From: Escherichia coli
GTDB lineage: Bacteria > Pseudomonadota > Gammaproteobacteria > Enterobacterales > Enterobacteriaceae
Reading direction: 5' to 3' (one strand)
Assembly: GCF_022846255.1 (NCBI RefSeq)
Contig: NZ_AP025682.1
DNA length: 64,000 nucleotides
In this document: one piece after another, positions 14,817-25,470 of the stretch
Position numbering within the stretch: position 1 is the stretch's first letter
Layout of the letters: each line of letters starts with the position of its first letter
Made by a program: the position numbers and the translations under genes
The notes under the pieces: model-generated
Seen by the model: only the letters and a program-made list of their open reading frames with translations
Databases searched by the model: none
Told to the model about the DNA's origin: nothing

Positions 14817-16652
14817 CTACTCTTCGTCATCGCCATCGACATGCGCACGAATCAGCGCCATAAACGGTTTGCCAAAGCGTTCCAGCTTGCGCATCCCAAC
14901 GCCGTTAACGCTGAGCATTTCGCTGGCAGTGATCGGCATCTGTTCCGCCATCTCAATCAAGGTTGCGTCGTTAAATACCACGTACGGCGGGACATTGCTT
15001 TCATCGGCAATCGATTTACGCAGTTTGCGTAATTTGGCGAACAGTTTGCGATCATAGTTGCCGCCGAACGATTTCTGCATCGCTTTCGGTTTGAGCGCCA
15101 CGATACGCGGCACGGCAAGTTGCAAAGAGGATTCGCCGCGCAGCACCGGACGCGCAGCCTCTGTCAGTTGTAGGGCAGAATGCTGGGCAATATTTTGCGT
15201 CACCAGGCCGAGGTGAATCAGCTGGCGGATCACGCTCACCCAATGTTCATGGCTTTTATCACGGCCCATGCCATAGACTTTCAGTTTGTCATGACCATAG
15301 TCGCGGATACGCTGGTTATTAGCGCCACGAATCACTTCCACCACATAACCCATCCCAAACCGCTGATTCACCCGACCAATGGTGGAAAGGGCAATCTGAG
15401 CATCGGTTGAACCATCGTATTGTTTCGGCGGATCGAGGCAGATATCGCAGTTCCCGCACGGCTCCTGCCGCCCTTCGCCAAAGTAGTTCAGCAGCACCAG
15501 ACGACGGCAAGTTTGCGCTTCGGCAAACGCGCCCATCGCATTGAGTTTATGGCGCTCGATATCCTGCAATTGCCCCTGCGGCTTCTCTTCCAGACAACGG
15601 CGTAGCCACGCCATATCGGCCGGATCGTAAAACAGCATCGCTTCCGCGGGCAGGCCATCACGCCCGGCGCGTCCAGTTTCCTGATAATAGGATTCGATAT
15701 TGCGCGGAATATCAAAGTGGACCACGAAGCGGACGTTAGGCTTGTTGATGCCCATGCCAAACGCCACGGTCGCCACCACAATTTGCAGGTCATCGCGCTG
15801 GAATTTTTCCTGCACATCGGCGCGAACATTATTTTCCAGCCCGGCATGATAGGCCGCCGCGCTAATTCCCTTGCTTTGCAGGCGCGCAGCGGTGTCTTCT
15901 ACTTTCGCGCGGCTGTTGCAGTAGATAATGCCTGACTTACCGCGCTGTTCCTGCACGTAGCGCATCAACTGATCGAGCGGTTTGAATTTCTCCATCAGCA
16001 TGTAGCGAATGTTCGGACGGTCAAAACTGCTAATTTGAATCAGCGGATCGTTCAGCCCCAGCAGGCGCACGATATCCTGCCGCGTGGTGTCGTCGGCGGT
16101 GGCAGTCAGCGCCATAAACGGCAGCGTCGGAAAACGCTGACGCAGCTGACCGAGGGCAGCGTATTCCGGGCGGAAATCGTGCCCCCATTGGGAGATACAG
16201 TGCGCTTCATCAACGGCTAATAACACCGGATTCCAGTGCGCCAGATGCTCAAGGAAGTTATCCAGCATCAGGCGTTCCGGCGCGATATACAGCAGGCGGA
16301 TTTGCCCGGTGCGACAGCCTGTCATCACGTCAAGTTGCTGCTCGCGGGTTTGCGTCGAGTTAAGGCACGCCGCCGCCACGCCGTTGGCTTGCAGTTGATC
16401 CACCTGATCTTTCATCAACGAAATCAGCGGTGAGACAACCACGGTAAGGCCGTTTAGCAATAAGGCAGGGATTTGATAGCAAAGGGATTTTCCGCCACCA
16501 GTGGGCATGACGACCAGGCAATCGCGACCGGAAAGTACGGTGTCGATAATCTCTTCCTGGCCGGGGCGAAACTGTTGGTAGCCAAAGGTTTCTTGTAAAA
16601 CCTGTTTAGCCCCGGACTCCAGATTCAACACTTCCGCCTGCGCCACATTCAC
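14817..16652 (-). CDS. recQ: ATP-dependent DNA helicase RecQ
   Basis: product matches RecQ ([29 protein letters not shown]...); annotated start may be the GTG two codons downstream of the ORF start. Confidence 0.95.
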
Positions 16653-16660
16653 CCCGATTG

Positions 16661-16695
16661 CCTGAAATAAAAACAGGCGCTATTTTCAGCGCCTG
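16661..16695 (-). terminator. rho-independent terminator downstream of pldA
   Basis: CAGGCGCT / AGCGCCTG 8-bp stem with 6-nt loop, followed on the minus strand by TTTTTATTT. Confidence 0.55.
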
Positions 16696-16770
16696 CGCGA
16701 GAAACTGCAATGCTTTTAGTCTCTGAGAGGGTAATCCTGGATGCTGGATTCCAGATTTGCCAACCATTCA

Positions 16771-17640
16771 TCAAAACAGGTCGTTTAGCATAACTCCCAC
16801 ACCAACGCGGGTCTGGTTGAAGTTATAGTCGATGAGCGATTCGCCGTAACCACTGTAAACCTGAGTATAAAGGCGCACATGTTTGGTGATCGGGTAACTT
16901 AAGCCTAACTCCGCACCACCGTAACCGGTGTTCCAGTTGTACTGCCCTTTCGCGCTCAGTACCGCATCACCGAGGTGATAGCCGATTTTAAGCTGGTAAT
17001 AGCCCATATATTTGGTGATATCCGGGTTATCGTCAGTATTACCCACCACATACCACGGCTTCACCTCTACCAGCCAGTTACCGTTTTCTGCCATCAGGCG
17101 GGTATAAAGGCGGTTCCAGCTGCGGGAAGTCGGGTCAGAACGCCCGTTTGAGTCGTGGTTGTAGCCCATTTCCACATCGCGCAGCGTCCAGCCAGCAAAG
17201 TTGTAATCCGTGGCAAAACCGAGGAACAATTGCGGTTCGTAGTTGGTTTCACGAAACGGTGAAGACTCTTCGCTATTGGACAGTTGCCACCAGGATTTTT
17301 GCGTGTAAGACGCACCCAATACCGAGTTCGGGCCTAAAATCCCACGCCACAGCGGAAATGCCAGGCTCAACTGAAACTTTACTTCATCCTTACGCGCATT
17401 TTCCGCCCAGTCGTAACTGGCAATCGCTTCTTTATTCAGATCGCTGGTTTGGGTGTAGATGATGTAGTTGGTGTCATAAGGATAAAGGGTGAACGGATTG
17501 TCATGCTCCTGCAGCATATTCGCAATAATACTGCCACGCACCGCAGGCGCGTCATGCACCTCTTTTACCGTTGCCTCTTGCGCATACACTGCCATTGGCA
17601 ACATAAACACCGGCAACAACCAGCCCTGCAGAGTCCGCAT
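16771..17640 (-). CDS. pldA: outer membrane phospholipase A
   Basis: 289-aa product with signal peptide, matching PldA. Confidence 0.95.
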   Translation of the reverse strand: MRTLQGWLLPVFMLPMAVYAQEATVKEVHDAPAVRGSIIANMLQEHDNPFTLYPYDTNYIIYTQTSDLNKEAIASYDWAENARKDEVKFQLSLAFPLWRGILGPNSVLGASYTQKSWWQLSNSEESSPFRETNYEPQLFLGFATDYNFAGWTLRDVEMGYNHDSNGRSDPTSRSWNRLYTRLMAENGNWLVEVKPWYVVGNTDDNPDITKYMGYYQLKIGYHLGDAVLSAKGQYNWNTGYGGAELGLSYPITKHVRLYTQVYSGYGESLIDYNFNQTRVGVGVMLNDLF

Positions 17641-17804
17641 CGGTCGTGTTCTCCGTAACGAATTATTGATTAGATGAATATTTTTCTGCGGGCTATTTTA
17701 CATACTTAACTCCTTTGCCGTTAGTTATCCCTTCCTAAAGTAGAAAACCACAATTAAGAAGCATAAAATCAACATTTCATTAACCAATGAGGTGTAAGGA
17801 TGAT

Positions 17805-18272
17805 ATGTCTGCCGTACTGACCGCTGAACAAGCCCTGAAATTAGTGGGTGAGATGTTTGTTTATCACATGCCATTTAACCGCGCATTGGGGATGGAACTG
17901 GAGCGTTACGAAAAAGAGTTCGCACAGCTGGCCTTTAAAAATCAGCCAATGATGGTGGGTAACTGGGCGCAAAGCATTTTGCACGGCGGGGTCATTGCGT
18001 CGGCGCTGGATGTCGCCGCAGGTCTGGTGTGCGTGGGAAGTACCTTAACCCGCCACGAAACCATCAGTGAAGATGAACTACGCCAGCGGCTATCGCGGAT
18101 GGGGACCATTGATCTTCGCGTCGATTATCTGCGCCCAGGCAGGGGCGAGCGTTTTACTGCTACCAGTAGCCTGTTGCGGGCAGGCAATAAAGTCGCCGTC
18201 GCCCGCGTTGAATTACACAATGAAGAACAGCTTTATATTGCCAGCGCTACCGCCACCTATATGGTAGGTTGA
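17805..18272 (+). CDS. yigI: PaaI-like thioesterase YigI
   Basis: 155-aa hotdog-fold thioesterase from internal ATG of ORF 17787..18272. Confidence 0.8.
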
Positions 18273-18323
18273 TAACGTAAAAGCAGGTAAACTGCTGTTA
18301 CCAATTAAAAATGAGTATTCCCG

Positions 18324-19211
18324 ATGGATGCAAAACAAACGCGGCAAGGCGTATTACTCGCTCTTGCCGCTTATTTTATTTGGGGTATTGCGCCAGCGTA
18401 CTTCAAGCTGATTTACTACGTGCCCGCCGATGAGATCCTGACGCATCGCGTGATCTGGTCGTTTTTCTTTATGGTGGTGCTGATGAGCATCTGCCGCCAG
18501 TGGTCCTATTTAAAAACGCTGATTCAGACGCCACAGAAAATTTTTATGCTGGCAGTCTCTGCCGTGCTGATTGGTGGCAACTGGCTACTGTTTATCTGGG
18601 CGGTGAACAATCACCATATGCTGGAAGCGAGTCTTGGTTACTTTATTAACCCGCTGGTGAACATTGTGCTGGGGATGATTTTCCTCGGCGAGCGATTCCG
18701 CCGGATGCAATGGCTGGCGGTGATTCTGGCGATATGTGGAGTGCTGGTTCAGTTGTGGACTTTTGGTTCACTGCCGATCATCGCGCTGGGGCTGGCGTTT
18801 AGTTTTGCTTTCTATGGCCTGGTGCGCAAGAAGATTGCTGTTGAAGCGCAAACCGGCATGTTAATCGAAACTATGTGGTTGCTGCCCGTGGCGGCGATTT
18901 ACCTGTTTGCTATTGCCGACAGCTCAACCAGTCATATGGGGCAAAACCCGATGTCGCTGAATTTACTGCTGATCGCCGCCGGTATTGTCACTACCGTACC
19001 GCTGTTGTGTTTTACTGCGGCTGCGACACGCCTGCGTCTCTCAACGTTAGGCTTTTTTCAGTACATTGGCCCGACGCTGATGTTCCTGCTGGCTGTGACG
19101 TTTTATGGTGAAAAACCGGGTGCCGATAAGATGGTGACCTTCGCCTTTATTTGGGTGGCGCTGGCAATTTTTGTGATGGATGCGATTTATACGCAGCGTA
19201 GAAAAAGTTAA
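18324..19211 (+). CDS. rarD: EamA-family transporter RarD
   Basis: 295-aa 10-TM DMT protein matching RarD. Confidence 0.9.
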   Translation: MDAKQTRQGVLLALAAYFIWGIAPAYFKLIYYVPADEILTHRVIWSFFFMVVLMSICRQWSYLKTLIQTPQKIFMLAVSAVLIGGNWLLFIWAVNNHHMLEASLGYFINPLVNIVLGMIFLGERFRRMQWLAVILAICGVLVQLWTFGSLPIIALGLAFSFAFYGLVRKKIAVEAQTGMLIETMWLLPVAAIYLFAIADSSTSHMGQNPMSLNLLLIAAGIVTTVPLLCFTAAATRLRLSTLGFFQYIGPTLMFLLAVTFYGEKPGADKMVTFAFIWVALAIFVMDAIYTQRRKS

Positions 19212-19257
19212 GCATTAACATGGGTAGGCCGTTTAAAGAGCCTACCCACTGACTTAT

Positions 19258-19575
19258 TTATCTTTTTTTGAAAAAAATTAAGATAAGAAAAAGAACAATA
19301 TTTGTTACAGGAAATACCCCCAAAGCTCCCCAGTACTTACTCCATCCTAGAGACATCGTATATCTACCAAGGATTTGACAAAATCCAAAACTTAACCCTA
19401 TACCTATACTTCTTAAATTTAATGTCGTAGTCAGGCTTAAAATAAATAGAACAAGGATGGTAATAGCCCACCACAATAACCACGCCTTAACAAAATCAGA
19501 TTTTTTGCTGTAAGGTTCTTTACCCAAGAACAACTGCCAAAAGTTACTATTTTCCATATAGAATACATTCACCAA
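19258..19575 (-). CDS. small hypothetical inner membrane protein in AT-rich islet (position of yigG in the K-12 layout)
   Basis: 105-aa ORF with two hydrophobic segments; about 30% GC; start codon uncertain. Confidence 0.4.
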   Translation of the reverse strand: MVNVFYMENSNFWQLFLGKEPYSKKSDFVKAWLLWWAITILVLFILSLTTTLNLRSIGIGLSFGFCQILGRYTMSLGWSKYWGALGVFPVTNIVLFLILIFFKKR

Positions 19576-19772
19576 AAATATTATTCATAGAAACAAATAT
19601 TATTTAATTATATTTAATTAAATATAGTTCCCCTCAATAAAAACTTATACACTCTAAATTACTACTGTATAGTTATCAATACAAAGGCTGTCATATTGCA
19701 TGGATATAACAAGCTATATGTTCTAAATAATGTATATACACTTAAACCAATCATATACAAAACAATATAAAA

Positions 19773-20159
19773 ATGTTTAAATCATCTATTAGAAATATAT
19801 TATACCCATCCAGGCTTAAGCATTTATCACGTTTGCAGTTTATAATCTACACATTAACATCATGGACAATATTAATAACTTTGAATGATATCAACCTGGC
19901 TTTGAGTTTCATTCTGGTCATCACTAATACGTATGTGAATATCAATATCGGAGCTAAAAGAATAAGAGATACTGGATGTAAGGCAATCTATTTTGTATTG
20001 ATTTCATTGGGTTTGACACTTTTTTCTATTATCTCGGCAGTAATTGAAGGGGTGAGATGTGATTCATTAAGCGTCCAACTCAACGTAGCATGGATATTAT
20101 TCACAACAATTATGTTATCTGCGATTCCCTCGGCTAAAATGTCGCTGTCAGCACACTAA
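19773..20159 (+). CDS. small hypothetical inner membrane protein in AT-rich islet (position of yigF in the K-12 layout)
   Basis: 128-aa ORF, hydrophobic segments; about 30% GC. Confidence 0.4.
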   Translation: MFKSSIRNILYPSRLKHLSRLQFIIYTLTSWTILITLNDINLALSFILVITNTYVNINIGAKRIRDTGCKAIYFVLISLGLTLFSIISAVIEGVRCDSLSVQLNVAWILFTTIMLSAIPSAKMSLSAH

Positions 20160-20183
20160 CTTACTCACAGCGACATCGTAAAG

Positions 20184-21134
20184 TTACAACCAGTTCTTCC
20201 GCTTAAAGTAGAGATACGGTGCCAGGCCCGCGAGGATCATAAAGATAATCGCGCCTGGGTAGCCGAAGCTCCACTTCAGTTCTGGCATAAACTCAAAGTT
20301 CATCCCGTAGCTGGAAGCAACCAGCGTCGGCGGCAGGAACACGACGGATACCACCGAGAAGATTTTGATGATGCGGTTCTGCTCGATATTGATAAAGCCC
20401 ATCGCCGCCTGCATCAGGAAGTTCACCTTCTGGAACAGGGATTCGTTATGCGGCAGCAGGGATTCGATATCTCGCAGGATTTCACGCGCCTGCTCCAGTT
20501 GCCCACCCGGTAAACGCGCCTTGCGTACCAGGAAGTTGAGCGCACGCTGGGTATCCATCAGACACAGGCGAACTTTCCAGCCGATATCTTCCAGTTCCGC
20601 CAGCGTAGAGAGCGCTTCGTCATACTCATCGCCCTGATGCCCTTCCATAATCACCCGGCTCAACTGCTCCAGGTCGCTATAGATATTTTCAATTTCATCT
20701 GCCAGCTGTTCGATTTTGGTTTCGAACAGATCCAACAGCAGCTCGTAGGCGTTACCGTCTACCATCGACTGGCTACGGGCACGCATACGATACAGACGAA
20801 AAGCGGGCAGTTCACGCTCACGCAAAGTAAACAGACGACCATCACGGATGGTAAATGCCACAGTGGAGTTACCGGCGTGATCTTCCGCATCTTCAAAGAA
20901 GAAGAAGGAGTGAATATGCAGGCCGTCATCGTCTTCAAAGAAACGTGCCGATGCTTCGATGTCTTCCAGTTCCGGGCGGGTTGCCAGGCTCTGGCCAAGT
21001 TCAGATTGTACGCGCAGTCGCTCGTCGTCGTCCGGTTCGACAAGATCAATCCATACTGCATTTACAAGGGGTTGTGACTCTTCGACTTCCAGCCGGGTCA
21101 GTCGGTTATTTTCCAGTTGAAATGCGCTCAGCAT
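20184..21134 (-). CDS. corA: magnesium/cobalt transport protein CorA
   Basis: [17 protein letters not shown]... 316 aa with the GMN motif ([11 protein letters not shown]); start at the internal ATG of ORF 20184..21149. Confidence 0.97.
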
Positions 21135-21503
21135 GACCGGGACTCCCAATGCTTAAAATATCGGACAGTTCGGTGGGCACACAGAAACAAATTGGGTTTC
21201 AGACCATTAAACAGCCTGACTCAGCGCGACGGGAAAAATTGAGGTCGCTGACAACCGCTAAGGCTATCAGCAAAAAGGGATAGCCTTAGGAGTTGATCCT
21301 GGATGACAGGATAGTGAGCCAGTATCTACTGGGTGTGTCCAAGGCGAATGTCCTCTTAGAGTGATCGTGCGCGCATGTTACGCCAGCAAAATTTTGCCGT
21401 CAACACGCAACAGAACACCACAGAACAATAGTTGAACTTCGCGCTTTTTGGTACTCGTCAAGGTCGCTAACAGGATAAAAAAATCCCACATCCAGGACCT
21501 ATA

Positions 21504-22268
21504 ATGGCGCATCGGCTACTCATTGGTAAAGGAATGATCACCTTGAATCTCAAACGGATTTTTCTCGCCCTCACCTTACTTCCCTTGTTTGCTGTTGCCG
21601 CTGATGATTGCGCACTCTCAGATCCGACGCTGACCGTACAGGCGTATACCGTTAATACTCAAACAGAGCGGGTGAAAATGTACTGGCAAAAAGCCAATGG
21701 CGAAGCGTGGGGAACGTTACATGCGCTGCTGGCGGATATGAATAGTCAGGGTCAGGTGCAGATGGCGATGAACGGCGGCATCTATGATGAAAGCTATGCG
21801 CCGCTCGGTTTGTACATCGAAAACGGTCAGCAGAAGGTGGCGTTAAATCTCGCTTCAGGTGAAGGGAATTTCTTTATTCGTCCTGGCGGCGTGTTTTATG
21901 TCGCGGGAGATAAAGTCGGCATCGTTCGTCTGGATGCCTTTAAAACCAGTAAAGAGATTCAGTTTGCGGTGCAGTCAGGGCCATTGTTGATGGAAAACGG
22001 TGTAATTAATCCGCGTATTCATCCCAACGTCGCCTCACGTAAAATTCGTAACGGTGTTGGGATTAATAAACATGGGAACGCCGTGTTTTTGTTGAGCCAG
22101 CAGGCGACAAATTTTTATGATTTTGCCTGTTATGCCAAAGCAAAACTGAACGTTGAGCAGCTGCTTTATCTTGATGGCACAATTTCACATATGTATATGA
22201 AAGGCGAGGCAATCCCGTGGCAACGCTATCCTTTTGTCACCATGATTTCCGTCGAGCAGAAAGGTTAA
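21504..22268 (+). CDS. yigE: DUF2233 (phosphodiester glycosidase-like) protein YigE
   Basis: 254-aa ORF with N-terminal signal-like segment; length and position match K-12 yigE as I recall. Confidence 0.75.
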   Translation: MAHRLLIGKGMITLNLKRIFLALTLLPLFAVAADDCALSDPTLTVQAYTVNTQTERVKMYWQKANGEAWGTLHALLADMNSQGQVQMAMNGGIYDESYAPLGLYIENGQQKVALNLASGEGNFFIRPGGVFYVAGDKVGIVRLDAFKTSKEIQFAVQSGPLLMENGVINPRIHPNVASRKIRNGVGINKHGNAVFLLSQQATNFYDFACYAKAKLNVEQLLYLDGTISHMYMKGEAIPWQRYPFVTMISVEQKG

Positions 22269-22350
22269 ACATTGTACACTCGAGGAGGCCAGACAAACTG
22301 GGGCTGGCTACACAGCTGGAAAATCATCAGATAAATGAAGGGAAACAAAA

Positions 22351-23253
22351 ATGAAAAAAACGCTCGCAACATTATTTTTATTAACCTGTCTGGGGTCATC
22401 ATCCGCTTATGCGGATAACGCTTTGATTTTACAAACGGATTTTAGCCTGAAAGATGGTGCCGTCTCGGCGATGAAAGGGGTCGCTTTCGGCGTTGACCAT
22501 AATCTTAAAATATTTGATTTAACACACGAAATTCCACCGTATAACATCTGGGAAGGCGCTTACCGCCTGTATCAGACTGCCAATTACTGGCCGCAAGGTT
22601 CGGTGTTTGTTAGCGTGGTCGATCCTGGTGTTGGTACAGAGCGTAAATCGGTAGTGCTGAAAACCAAAAATGGTCAGTACTTCGTTTCACCAGATAACGG
22701 TACGCTCACGTTGGTGGCGGAATCGCTGGGTATTGAGAGCGTCCGGCAAATCGATGAAAAAACCAACCGTCTGAAAGGTTCCGAAAAGTCATATACCTTC
22801 CACGGTCGTGACGTGTATGCCTACACCGGTGCACGTCTGGCTTCCGGGGCGATCACGTTCGAGCAGGTGGGGCCAGAGCTTCCTGCAAAAGTTGTCGAAC
22901 TTTCTTATCAGAAAGCCAAAGCAACAAAAGGTGAAGTGAAGGGCAATATCCCGATTCTCGATATTCAGTACGGCAACGTCTGGAGCAATATCAGCGACGA
23001 GTTGCTGAATCAGGCAGGAATCAAACTCAACGACACGTTGTGTGTGACCATTTCCGAAGGTTCCCAGCAAAAATACGCAGGGAAAATGCCGTATGTCGCA
23101 AGCTTCGGCGATGTGCCGGAAGGCCAGCCGATGGTGTATCTGAACAGCTTATTGAATGTTTCCGTGGCGCTGAATATGGATAATTTCGCGCAGAAACATC
23201 AGGTTGCGTCTGGTGCTGACTGGAATATTGATGTGAAGAAGTGCGCTAAGTAA
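22351..23253 (+). CDS. DUF62 / SAM hydroxide adenosyltransferase-like protein with Sec signal peptide
   Basis: MKKTLATLFLLTCLGSSSAYA signal peptide with AxA cleavage site; ILQTDFS...MKGV and VVDPGVGTERK motifs characteristic of the SAM hydrolase/fluorinase-like family. Confidence 0.75.
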   Translation: MKKTLATLFLLTCLGSSSAYADNALILQTDFSLKDGAVSAMKGVAFGVDHNLKIFDLTHEIPPYNIWEGAYRLYQTANYWPQGSVFVSVVDPGVGTERKSVVLKTKNGQYFVSPDNGTLTLVAESLGIESVRQIDEKTNRLKGSEKSYTFHGRDVYAYTGARLASGAITFEQVGPELPAKVVELSYQKAKATKGEVKGNIPILDIQYGNVWSNISDELLNQAGIKLNDTLCVTISEGSQQKYAGKMPYVASFGDVPEGQPMVYLNSLLNVSVALNMDNFAQKHQVASGADWNIDVKKCAK

Positions 23254-23262
23254 GTTACTGAT

Positions 23263-23293
23263 GCCGGATGCGGTGTGGCGCACCGCATCCGGC
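23263..23293. repeat. REP-like palindrome between convergent DUF62 gene and uvrD
   Basis: GCCGGATGCGGTG tggcg CACCGCATCCGGC, 13-bp perfect stem. Confidence 0.6.
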
Positions 23294-23307
23294 AACGGAA
23301 TCGTAAA

Positions 23308-25470
23308 TTATACCGTCTCCAGTCGGGCGTAAGCCGCCACCAGCCATTTAATACCCTGGCCCTGGAACGCCACCTGCAAACGGCTATGCTCACCGCTGCC
23401 TTCCATATTGACGATGGTGCCTTCACCAAACTTAGCGTGGCGTACGCGCTGGCCGAGCTTGTAGCCGCTGTCGTTCTCGACCATCGGCGTACCCATCCGT
23501 TGATGGCTGACCGGGCGGCTTACCGTGGCGCGCAGGCGCACCTCTTCCACACACTCTTCCGGCAACTCACCGATAAAGCGCGACGGGCGATGGTAAACCT
23601 CTTTGCCATATAGACGGCGGGTTTCCGCGTAGGTCAGCGTCAGTTTCTGCATCGCGCGGGTTACGCCAACGTAGGCCAGACGGCGTTCTTCTTCCAGACG
23701 CCCGCCTTCATCCAGCGACATCTGGCTTGGGAACATGCCCTCTTCCATACCAACGATAAACACCTGCGGGAATTCCAGACCTTTCGCCGAGTGTAGCGTC
23801 ATCAACTGCACAGCATCCTGCCAGGTATCCGCCTGCCCCTCGCCCGCTTCCAGCGCCGCATGGGAGAGGAATGCCTGCAGCGGCATTAAATCTTCGTCTT
23901 CTTCGTTGTAGCTGAACTGGCGCGTTGCCGTCACCAGTTCCTCTAAGTTTTCGATACGCGTCTGACCTTTTTCGCCCTTCTCCTGCTCGTACATGGTGCG
24001 CAGGCCGGAGTCTTTAATTACCCGGTCAGTCTGTACATGCAGCGGCATATCGGCAGTTTCCTGCGCTAAGGCGTCGATTAATTCCATAAATCGCTGTAAG
24101 GCGCTGGCAGCACGTCCGGCGAGGGCTTTTTCCTGCAACAGTTCACGGCACGCTTGCCACAGCGTTAACTGTCGATCGCGCGATGCCTGACGTACCACGT
24201 CCAGCGTCCGGTCACCAATACCCCGCGTTGGCGTATTCACCACACGCTCAAAGGCCGCGTCGTCGTTACGGTTGGCAATCAGGCGTAAATACGAGAGCGC
24301 ATCTTTGATTTCCTGGCGTTCGAAGAAGCGCATCCCGCCGTAAATACGGTACGGCATACTCGCCTGCAACAGTGCTTCTTCCAGCACGCGCGACTGGGCG
24401 TTGCTGCGGTAGAGAATGGCGCACTCGGCAAGCGCCCCACCATTGTCCTGCCAGGTTTTGATGCGGTTAACGACAAAACGCGCTTCGTCGAGTTCGTTAA
24501 AAGCGCAATAGAGGGAAATCGGCTCACCGTCCGCGCCATCGGTCCACAACTTTTTACCCAAACGCCCGTTGTTGTTTTCAATCAGGGCGTTAGCGGCGCT
24601 CAGAATGTTGCTAGTGGAGCGGTAGTTTTGCTCCAGACGAATGGTTTCGGCACCGGGGAAATCATTGAGGAAACGCTGAATATTCTCTACCTGCGCCCCA
24701 CGCCAGCCGTAGATTGACTGGTCGTCATCGCCAACGATCATCACTTTGCCAGTATCGCCCGCCAGCAGGCGGATCCACGCGTACTGAATGTTGTTGGTAT
24801 CCTGGAATTCGTCCACCAGGATGTTAGTAAAACGTTCGCGGTAGTGTTGCAGGATATGCGGCTTGTTAAGCCACAGTTCGTGGGCGCGTAGCAGTAGTTC
24901 AGCGAAGTCTACCAGGCCCGCGCGGTCGCACGCTTCCTGATACGCCTGGTACACCTTCTGCCAGGTCTGCTCCACCGGATTACCGTAGCTTTGAATATGA
25001 TGCGGACGCAGCCCTTCATCTTTCTGGCTGTTGATGTACCACATTGCCTGGCGCGGCGGCCACTGCTTCTCGTCGAGGTTCATGGCTTTGATCAGACGCT
25101 TAAGCAGGCGCAACTGGTCTTCGCTGTCGAGGATCTGGAAATCCTGCGGCAGGTTGGCGTCCATATGGTGCGCACGCAGCAGACGGTGTGCCAGCCCGTG
25201 GAAAGTGCCGACCCACATACCGCCCTGGCTGGTACCCATCAGTTGCCCGATACGATGGCGCATTTCCGCCGCCGCTTTGTTGGTAAATGTCACCGCCATA
25301 ATCGAGTACGGCGAGCAGTTTTCCACGCTCATCAGCCAGGCGATACGATGCACCAGTACGCGCGTCTTACCACTGCCCGCGCCCGCCAGCACCAAAAGGT
25401 TGCTGCGTGGCGCGGCCACCGCTTCGCGCTGTTTGTCATTAAGGCTGTCGAGCAGGTAAGAAACGTCCAT
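23308..25470 (-). CDS. uvrD: DNA helicase II
   Basis: MDVSYLLDSLNDKQREAVAAPRSNLLVLAGAGSGKTRVLVHRIAWL... 720 aa from internal ATG of ORF 23308..25656. Confidence 0.97.
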   Translation of the reverse strand: MDVSYLLDSLNDKQREAVAAPRSNLLVLAGAGSGKTRVLVHRIAWLMSVENCSPYSIMAVTFTNKAAAEMRHRIGQLMGTSQGGMWVGTFHGLAHRLLRAHHMDANLPQDFQILDSEDQLRLLKRLIKAMNLDEKQWPPRQAMWYINSQKDEGLRPHHIQSYGNPVEQTWQKVYQAYQEACDRAGLVDFAELLLRAHELWLNKPHILQHYRERFTNILVDEFQDTNNIQYAWIRLLAGDTGKVMIVGDDDQSIYGWRGAQVENIQRFLNDFPGAETIRLEQNYRSTSNILSAANALIENNNGRLGKKLWTDGADGEPISLYCAFNELDEARFVVNRIKTWQDNGGALAECAILYRSNAQSRVLEEALLQASMPYRIYGGMRFFERQEIKDALSYLRLIANRNDDAAFERVVNTPTRGIGDRTLDVVRQASRDRQLTLWQACRELLQEKALAGRAASALQRFMELIDALAQETADMPLHVQTDRVIKDSGLRTMYEQEKGEKGQTRIENLEELVTATRQFSYNEEDEDLMPLQAFLSHAALEAGEGQADTWQDAVQLMTLHSAKGLEFPQVFIVGMEEGMFPSQMSLDEGGRLEEERRLAYVGVTRAMQKLTLTYAETRRLYGKEVYHRPSRFIGELPEECVEEVRLRATVSRPVSHQRMGTPMVENDSGYKLGQRVRHAKFGEGTIVNMEGSGEHSRLQVAFQGQGIKWLVAAYARLETV

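Follow-up and report, generated by a model that had tools for sequence, protein, structure and literature searches.

An AT-rich islet between rarD and corA of Escherichia coli is one of several alternative cassettes in a polymorphic slot

The AT-rich islet and its boundaries

Between rarD and corA in the Escherichia coli DNA analysed here, a single stretch of 64 kb (64,000 nucleotides) that we refer to as the window, lies an AT-rich islet of 980 nt with two small genes on opposite strands, which we designate orf99 and orf128; we call this islet cassette B. It is a real compositional feature. The guanine-plus-cytosine (GC) content of positions 19204–20183 is 0.315, against an average of 0.52 (standard deviation 0.035) for all 980-nt segments of the window, and it is the lowest of these segments, the next lowest standing at 0.432. 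Measured over 200 nt at a time, GC content falls from 0.51–0.53 in rarD to 0.21–0.40 over 19200–20199, with a minimum of 0.21 at 19600–19799, and returns to 0.52–0.57 in corA; at third codon positions (GC3) the two open reading frames (ORFs) of the islet have values of 0.32 and 0.36, compared with 0.61 for rarD and 0.63 for corA. A preliminary description of this DNA had reported a foreign-looking islet of about 30% GC between flanks above 50%, with two small opposite-strand ORFs encoding hydrophobic segments, and our measurements agree with it on each of these points. The locus is made up as follows.

18324–19211, plus strand: rarD, the core gene on the left, with its final three codons inside the variable segment
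19204–20183, no strand: cassette B, the AT-rich segment that is replaced (980 nt; GC 0.315), delimited by alignment with K-12-type and ST131-type loci and by composition
19258–19575, minus strand: orf99, putative small membrane-protein gene, 105 amino acids (aa) from a TTG at 19575 or 99 aa from an ATG at 19557
19773–20159, plus strand: orf128, putative 128-aa membrane-protein gene, an ORF adjoining corA
20184–21134, minus strand: corA, the right core flank, full length and directly after the cassette, from ORF and alignment

The islet is bounded exactly, on each side, by the 3′ end of a core gene, rarD on the left and corA on the right. In a multiple alignment the left breakpoint of cassette B falls three codons ahead of the rarD stop and the right end exactly at the corA stop, and the C-terminus of RarD reads ...RRKS in the window and ...RRTSK in K-12-type loci. 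A five-way alignment of loci shows flanks that are 95–100% identical, while the interior of cassette B is about 40% identical to that of the K-12-type or ST131-type cassettes (A and C below), which is the level of random sequence; the drop, from about 97%, comes exactly at the two gene ends. The earlier assignment of the islet to the slot occupied by yigG and yigF in K-12 was correct, as the flanks alone align to K-12-type loci; the possibility raised with it, that both proteins might be identical to K-12 YigG and YigF, is not what we find.

Alternative cassettes in the rarD-corA slot

We surveyed the slot in 5426 complete E. coli genomes, taking cassette counts from queries restricted to the cassette interiors. 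A megablast search with the islet and 50–60 nt of each flank matches 5425 of the 5426 genomes, 1430 of them over the full length; in genomes without a full-length match, one or both flanks alone align, among the examples listed. The cassettes are as follows.

Cassette A: K-12 yigG-yigF; 2408 of 5426 genomes; GC 0.347
Cassette B: the window islet, with orf99 and orf128; 1429 of 5426 genomes (26%); GC 0.315
Cassette C: ST131-type yigG-yigF, with 60–87% DNA identity to A; 565 of 5426 genomes; GC 0.339
Cassette D: a YPO3983-family/DUF3289 gene and a DUF943 gene; 2623 of 5426 genomes (48%); GC 0.326

The islet is one of at least four alternative cassettes that strains carry between rarD and corA. 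All are similarly AT-rich (GC 0.315–0.354), and cassette B is present across O157:H7, O26/O111-type, O104:H4 and other strains. It is a strain polymorphism and represents no new kind of system, and what is referred to as yigG/yigF is not a single locus but a set of four or more cassettes, unrelated or deeply diverged, between conserved flanks, which pan-genome and genome-wide association pipelines would split into unrelated 'accessory genes'.

The closest point of comparison is the K-12 yigG-yigF region (b3818-b3817), which occupies the same slot, is of similar length (911 nt, compared with 980 nt for cassette B) and GC content (0.347 and 0.315), and likewise contains two small membrane-protein genes, one of which, yigG, encodes a homologue of the orf128 product. 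The two cassettes nevertheless have no DNA similarity. The K-12 genes are arranged in tandem and co-directionally with rarD, whereas those of cassette B are divergent with the YigG-like gene placed beside corA, and in the position of YigF, a DUF2628 protein, cassette B has an unrelated protein of 99 aa.

Cassette D adds to A and B and is not an allele of either. It occurs alone (locus L017), downstream of A (L023, strain N3) or downstream of B (L011, strain 2012C-4227), and in the A+D and B+D composites an annotated 147-nt copy of the corA 3′ end divides D from the other cassette. Its positions before corA in other loci are as follows.

L011: 2148–3804
L017: 2967–4654
L023: 3975–5644
L024: 3244–4586

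In the window cassette B stands alone, with neither a DUF3289/DUF943 module nor a duplicated corA 3′ fragment. The missing module could be the ancestral condition or could reflect deletion between the corA repeats.

Relatives with the same cassette have the same genes and boundaries and are 92–93% identical over the whole islet. Within the cassette, identity to the common (O157) type follows a mosaic pattern: it is 96–100% in orf99 and over the 3′ half of orf128, and only 80–86% in the central segment at 19536–19880, which includes the spacer together with the 5′ portion of orf128. This central sub-allele is rare: over 19500–19900, about 10 of the 5426 genomes match it with at least 90% identity. 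The left flank is also mosaic, in a manner not linked to cassette type: rarD positions 18750–18849 are 89% identical to the O157 locus, 88% to K-12-type loci and 99% to ST131-type loci, and synonymous divergence (dS) in rarD between the window and O157 or K-12-type loci is about 0.17. On these alignments the rarD segment looks like a recombination mosaic. Whole cassettes (A, B or C, D being present or not) are probably swapped by homologous recombination in the conserved flanks, and not by a mobile element; exchange of this kind fits both the mosaic rarD flank and the sharing of the 147-nt corA 3′ copy by the A+D and B+D composites.

We also note insertions of IS1 in single genomes, within cassette B in AR_0128, cassette A in MB50 and cassette C in SCAID WND1-2022.

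The genes of cassette B

The Prokaryotic Genome Annotation Pipeline (PGAP) calls the 99-aa start of orf99 (ATG 19557) in most genomes of the same type, as a hypothetical protein (WP_001330510, WP_000526425), and the gene is intact in every cassette-B locus in which it could be checked (16 of 19). Its product has no similarity to YigF or YigG (BLASTP against YigF gives E 4.4) and no match to DUF2628 (Pfam PF10947), which the YigF proteins of cassettes A and C match at 40.6–41 bits; on sequence comparison orf99 is unrelated to yigF. Nor does the orf99 protein itself match DUF805 (PF05656), for which the gathering threshold is 25.7 bits. When 1.84 billion representative proteins were searched exhaustively with an HMMER profile, 17 proteins were returned, mostly fragments of the orf99 protein itself, together with a few metagenomic relatives of 105–111 aa. 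Two of these relatives, P0048 and P0045, match DUF805 almost end to end (22.8 and 15.2 bits), and one 99-aa member of the family is labelled 'YhaH (DUF805 family)' in IMG. The orf99 protein thus belongs to an orphan family, and that it is a divergent DUF805-like protein is possible, as a lead. The gene contexts of the metagenomic relatives P0045, P0047 and P0048 are uninformative, and a search with P0048 returned its close relatives alone.

An apparent homologue with 48% identity, P0027, was discarded as a frameshifted E. coli sequence from a poor assembly. Its source, L006 (GCA_002230675.1, NLPM01000018.1), contains an E. coli-like copy of the cassette full of frameshifts that give rise to chimeric 'proteins', and this probably reflects low assembly quality rather than biology.

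The product of orf128 is 31% identical to K-12 YigG over 84 aa (BLASTP, E 2e-5) and matches NCBIfam PRK11371 (NF008474) at E 1.4e-6 over model positions 19–133 of 138; with 28.5 bits and a cutoff of 217, it is homologous to YigG and far outside the equivalog. Its position also differs from that of yigG, which lies directly after rarD, co-directional with it, and is followed by yigF; orf128 instead lies next to corA and is divergent from orf99. The two proteins have in common a loop motif, (K/Q)R(I/L)RD(T/S)G, after the second transmembrane (TM) segment, reading KRIRDTG in orf128 and QRLRDSG in YigG. By these comparisons orf128 is a distant YigG homologue.

There are also similarities to the DUF805 family in size (about 100–130 aa), in the presence of three to four TM helices, and in a basic loop motif after TM2. 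The scores are weak and cover nearly the full length of the model: orf128 gives 13.9 bits, K-12 and ST131 YigG give 17.3 and 22.1 bits (17–22 overall), and the orf99 relatives 15–23 bits, all below 25.7. The DUF805 family has no known function, so that membership would not explain a mechanism.

Both products are predicted to be small inner-membrane proteins, in keeping with the hydrophobic segments noted earlier. A hydropathy scan marks strongly TM-like windows, two in orf99 and three in orf128. In line with it, AlphaFold2 models of moderate confidence predict three long helices for orf99 (predicted local distance difference test score, pLDDT, 77.8; predicted template modelling score, pTM, 0.69) and four for orf128 (pLDDT 75.8, pTM 0.69), and neither a sequence-profile search of the PDB nor a Foldseek comparison of both models with the PDB gave meaningful matches.

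Comparison of cassette-B subtypes shows constraint on both reading frames. Between the window and L024, which represents a third subtype known from metagenomes, orf99 has 8 synonymous and 7 nonsynonymous differences, with a ratio of nonsynonymous to synonymous divergence (dN/dS) of 0.21, and the two other frames of the same DNA, read as off-frame controls, give 0.5–1.6; dS of orf99 from the O157 type is 0.03. For orf128 there are 35 synonymous and 25 nonsynonymous differences from L024 (dN/dS 0.16) and 17 and 9 from the O157 type (dN/dS 0.14, dS 0.22), and across comparisons its dN/dS is 0.12–0.17, with off-frame controls at 0.9–1.2. The orf128 frame is open in all 19 of the cassette-B loci examined. 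As far as sequence can show, orf99 and orf128 are real genes under frame-specific purifying selection, and a by-product of the analysis is that orf128 is a missed gene annotation.

This bears on the suggestion that the ORFs are no more than chance open frames in AT-rich non-coding DNA of the 'promoter island' kind, giving no protein product. Such a view would accommodate the omission of orf128 by PGAP, the weak ribosome-binding sites, and the fact that the K-12 allele is listed among promoter islands and has spurious promoters within its genes. It would not account for frame-specific purifying selection in both ORFs, for 46–61% protein identity in another genus (described below) despite saturated synonymous sites, or for the finding that both frames are open in all cassette-B loci of good quality that we examined, and helical-bundle models were also obtained for the predicted products. 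We therefore regard it as strongly disfavoured and extremely improbable.

Age, spread and mobility of cassette B

The preliminary description took the composition of the islet to be typical of DNA that is horizontally acquired and silenced by the nucleoid protein H-NS, and one reading of its composition is that it is recent and specific to the strain, with too little time elapsed for amelioration. The low GC and GC3 values relative to the rest of the window are as this would predict, the islet is absent from K-12-type genomes, and its central sub-allele is rare. The frequency and divergence data contradict it. Cassette B is present in about a quarter of E. coli and in several serotypes, and its subtypes have diverged to dS values of 0.2–0.6 (up to 0.56).

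The same layout is moreover found in another genus. In Pseudocitrobacter corydidari the slot contains, in order, corA, an ORF of 127 aa, a divergent ORF of 98 aa, and rarD; identity to the E. coli proteins is 61% for orf99 and 46% for orf128 (E 3e-43), the flanking RarD and CorA proteins are 90% and 93% identical, and synonymous sites in the cassette are saturated between the two species. The cassette proteins thus evolve several-fold faster than RarD and CorA. The P. corydidari cassette has a GC content of 0.28–0.40 in a background of 0.53, and because low GC is also found there, with synonymous sites saturated, it is maintained and not transient. Judged from these sequences, the cassette is at least as old as the split between E. 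coli and Pseudocitrobacter, or has crossed it.

Divergence among the other alleles is of a similar order. Between cassettes A and C within E. coli, YigG is 76% and YigF 70% identical; Salmonella YigG is reported to be 82% identical to that of K-12, and yigG to be absent from S. Enteritidis (PMC3579871). By these comparisons allele divergence within E. coli is as large as that between genera, and the YigG values in the two groups therefore suggest that the slot polymorphism is older than, or shared across, species.

Signatures of mobility were looked for and not found. There are no mobility ORFs within 980 nt, no transfer RNA (tRNA) gene within 15000–25000, no direct repeats flanking the cassette, and no copies of orf99 or orf128 in phages by tblastn. 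Plasmid matches in the same type of search are confined to two records, of 1.0 and 4.8 Mb, which are taken to be chromosomes filed as plasmids. Among 5.8 billion clustered proteins, apart from metagenomic and raw-read entries, the family comprises E. coli sequences and one P. corydidari protein, the same 90% clusters also holding members labelled Shigella sonnei and unclassified Escherichia, and no donor lineage is apparent in this set or in the set of 1.8 billion proteins.

With no integrase, tRNA, repeat, plasmid or phage link and no donor, and with the Pseudocitrobacter layout and low GC accompanied by saturated synonymous sites, the recent acquisition of strain-specific cargo is largely refuted, and we consider it very unlikely. 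The choice originally posed, between an old conserved segment and strain-specific cargo, is mistaken on both sides as stated; the data point instead to an old polymorphic slot.

Regulatory signals and probable silencing

Three further features were identified in the cassette from composition, inverted repeats and RNA folding.

19219–19251, no strand: GC-rich terminator-like hairpin flanked by the stop codons of rarD and orf99 (inverted repeat and RNA fold)
19558–19772, no strand: divergent intergenic spacer, 215 nt, GC 0.214, presumed to contain the promoters of both genes (composition)
20139–20176, no strand: terminator-like hairpin over the last orf128 codons, ending 8 nt before the corA stop codon (inverted repeat and fold)

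The left hairpin has a folding energy of −17.3 kcal/mol on the plus strand (z −3.75), where a U-rich tail follows, and of −21.1 kcal/mol on the minus strand (z −4.0), and is terminator-like for both of the convergent genes rarD and orf99. It is part of the cassette and not of the core flank, K-12-type loci having a different sequence there, and Pseudocitrobacter carries an analogous hairpin. The right hairpin reaches −22.6 kcal/mol on the minus strand, where its z-score is −3.3 and UUUU comes next, and −15 kcal/mol on the plus strand. It resembles a terminator for corA and is particular to cassette B, with cassettes A and C having a different hairpin at the same place. Together the two span −15 to −23 kcal/mol and z-scores between −2.9 and −4.0; they were identified by repeat search and folding, and a promoter/terminator consensus scan missed both. 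Since the breakpoints lie at the gene ends, each cassette brings its own terminator-like hairpins for rarD and corA.

The spacer is the most variable and fastest-evolving part of the cassette, with 36–76% identity among cassette-B subtypes. It contains promoter-like sites by consensus scan at 19646–19673 on the plus strand and 19679–19651 on the minus strand. A short tandem motif had been pointed out here; the repeat exists, as two copies of the 10-nt TATTTAATTA at 19601–19620 (Tandem Repeats Finder score 40), about 5 nt from where it had been placed, and the stretch is 73–76% identical between cassette-B subtypes. A repeat of this kind is trivial and unremarkable in a spacer of 21% GC. There is no Rfam match over 19000–20400 at E values up to 1.

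The K-12 allele of the slot has been studied. It is the exemplar of the 'promoter island' (PMC3661553), its yigG counts as one of the horizontally acquired genes that H-NS silences and that contain spurious intragenic promoters (PMC7229825), and the locus lies inside an extended protein-occupancy domain (bioRxiv 2020.01.29.924811). These H-NS and occupancy data pertain to the K-12 allele only. Cassette B has the AT content of xenogeneic DNA (GC 0.315 against 0.52 ± 0.035, with the spacer at 0.214), and it is reasonable to suppose that it is silenced as well, because the K-12 allele of the same slot is silenced and because its composition is AT-rich. By this analogy H-NS probably binds cassette B and largely silences it under laboratory conditions, in which case its proteins would be made only in particular conditions.

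We consider it likely that the islet is one allele of an old, multi-allelic AT-rich slot, exchanged by recombination and probably silenced by H-NS. Cassette B is a self-contained unit that supplies terminator-like hairpins for both neighbours, a presumed divergent promoter region of 215 nt, and two putative membrane-protein genes. Least certain is the role of these proteins, which may serve as accessory factors of the envelope, at the inner membrane.

Several observations weigh against this interpretation. The orf128 start codon is changed from ATG to ATA in 5 of the 19 cassette-B loci (L008, L009, L010, L019 and L020), O104:H4 among them, which may be a loss of the start codon or a non-canonical start; PGAP leaves the gene unannotated (in L001, L002 and L007–L010), and in some lineages orf128 may be dispensable or on its way to being lost. 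A clear Shine-Dalgarno sequence is missing from both ORFs as read from the DNA, and promoter-like sites are not enriched over shuffled sequences (7 found, 5.4 ± 2.6 expected). The H-NS consensus TCGATAAATT has no match inside the islet at up to two mismatches; a scan of the whole window at the same stringency gives 65 matches with 56 expected, and this motif scan is uninformative because H-NS binding tracks AT content. All of the family assignments fall below curated thresholds, and an hhalign comparison of the orf99 family with the YigG/orf128 family found no relation (probability 0.5%), so that we do not claim the two genes as paralogues.

A scan of 100,044 species genomes gave cassette B in Escherichia-like DNA only, a scan that did not recover P. 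corydidari and in which absence is therefore not proof of absence. Three of its four matches are E. coli contigs filed under metagenome-assembled genomes of Clostridium, Alistipes and Collinsella (L019, L020 and L022), with 92–93% protein identity, and are most likely binning contamination. The distribution could reflect an ancient, vertically inherited polymorphism or repeated transfer between species.

Comparison with a toxin-immunity module

The DUF3289/DUF943 module, cassette D, invites comparison with cassette B as a two-gene accessory module that is found at this site in other E. coli and has a comparably low GC content (0.326), although its proteins have no sequence relation to those of orf99 and orf128. 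The DUF3289/DUF943 pair has been shown experimentally to consist of a colicin-M-like toxin and its immunity protein (DUF943), and was proposed as an orphan type VI secretion system (T6SS) effector-immunity pair (PMC11148199). Functional data for a relative of the cassette-B proteins are confined to yigG mutants of Salmonella, which show reduced surface attachment and reduced growth under chlorine stress (PMC3579871).

The presence of module D in nearly half of the genomes raises the possibility that the slot is a locus of inter-bacterial or phage conflict, in which the A, B and C proteins are orphan immunity or exclusion factors directed at membrane-targeting toxins or phages and the alleles are kept by balancing or diversifying selection. 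Small AT-rich genes for proteins of three to four TM segments are typical of the immunity genes of pore-forming bacteriocins. The alleles are deep, their proteins change several-fold faster than the flanks, and in strain N3 a WapI-family immunity gene lies two genes away. None of cassettes A, B and C, however, includes a toxin gene. For cassette B neither resemblance to known toxin, immunity or defence proteins nor a toxin-like ORF was found; PADLOC gives 0 families for either gene, and PHROGs has no match for orf99 and, for orf128, two that fall short of significance (E 0.043 and 0.34). Only the context of the neighbouring module, as seen in other strains, is suggestive. The supplementary tables of the T6SS effector-immunity catalogue do not mention DUF805 or DUF2628 (PMC11148199). 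Selection within cassette B, with dN/dS of 0.16–0.21, is purifying and not diversifying, and the start codon of orf128 has been lost in some lineages. On balance we think this explanation unlikely.

A more ambitious form of the proposal, that the rarD-corA slot is a long-lived conflict locus of the Enterobacteriaceae in which the mutually exclusive cassettes A, B and C supply small DUF805-like, DUF2628-like or orphan membrane proteins as immunity or exclusion factors, stand beside the toxin-immunity pair D and are held by balancing selection beyond the lifetimes of species, we consider quite unlikely. Were the conflict-locus reading true, it would provide a first function for YigG, YigF and the DUF805 proteins. 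With AT-rich DNA that is probably H-NS-silenced, small membrane proteins and a validated toxin-immunity pair at one site, the slot is a compact locus for probing DUF805-like function and the persistence of alleles.

Other variable sites near the slot

The WapI-family immunity gene of strain N3 lies in the gap between recQ and pldA (L023 115–573); in the window the corresponding gap is 118 nt long (16653–16770) and empty.

On the other side of the slot, between yigE and uvrD, the window contains the following gene.

22351–23253, plus strand: ORF of 300 aa matching both S-adenosylmethionine (SAM) hydroxide adenosyltransferase domains, PF01887 and PF20257

This ORF has an apparent signal-peptide-like hydrophobic N-terminus, and GC content around 22000–22700 is 0.41–0.47. 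Strain 2012C-4227 (L011) lacks a gene at this site, which makes it another variable slot about 2 kb away.

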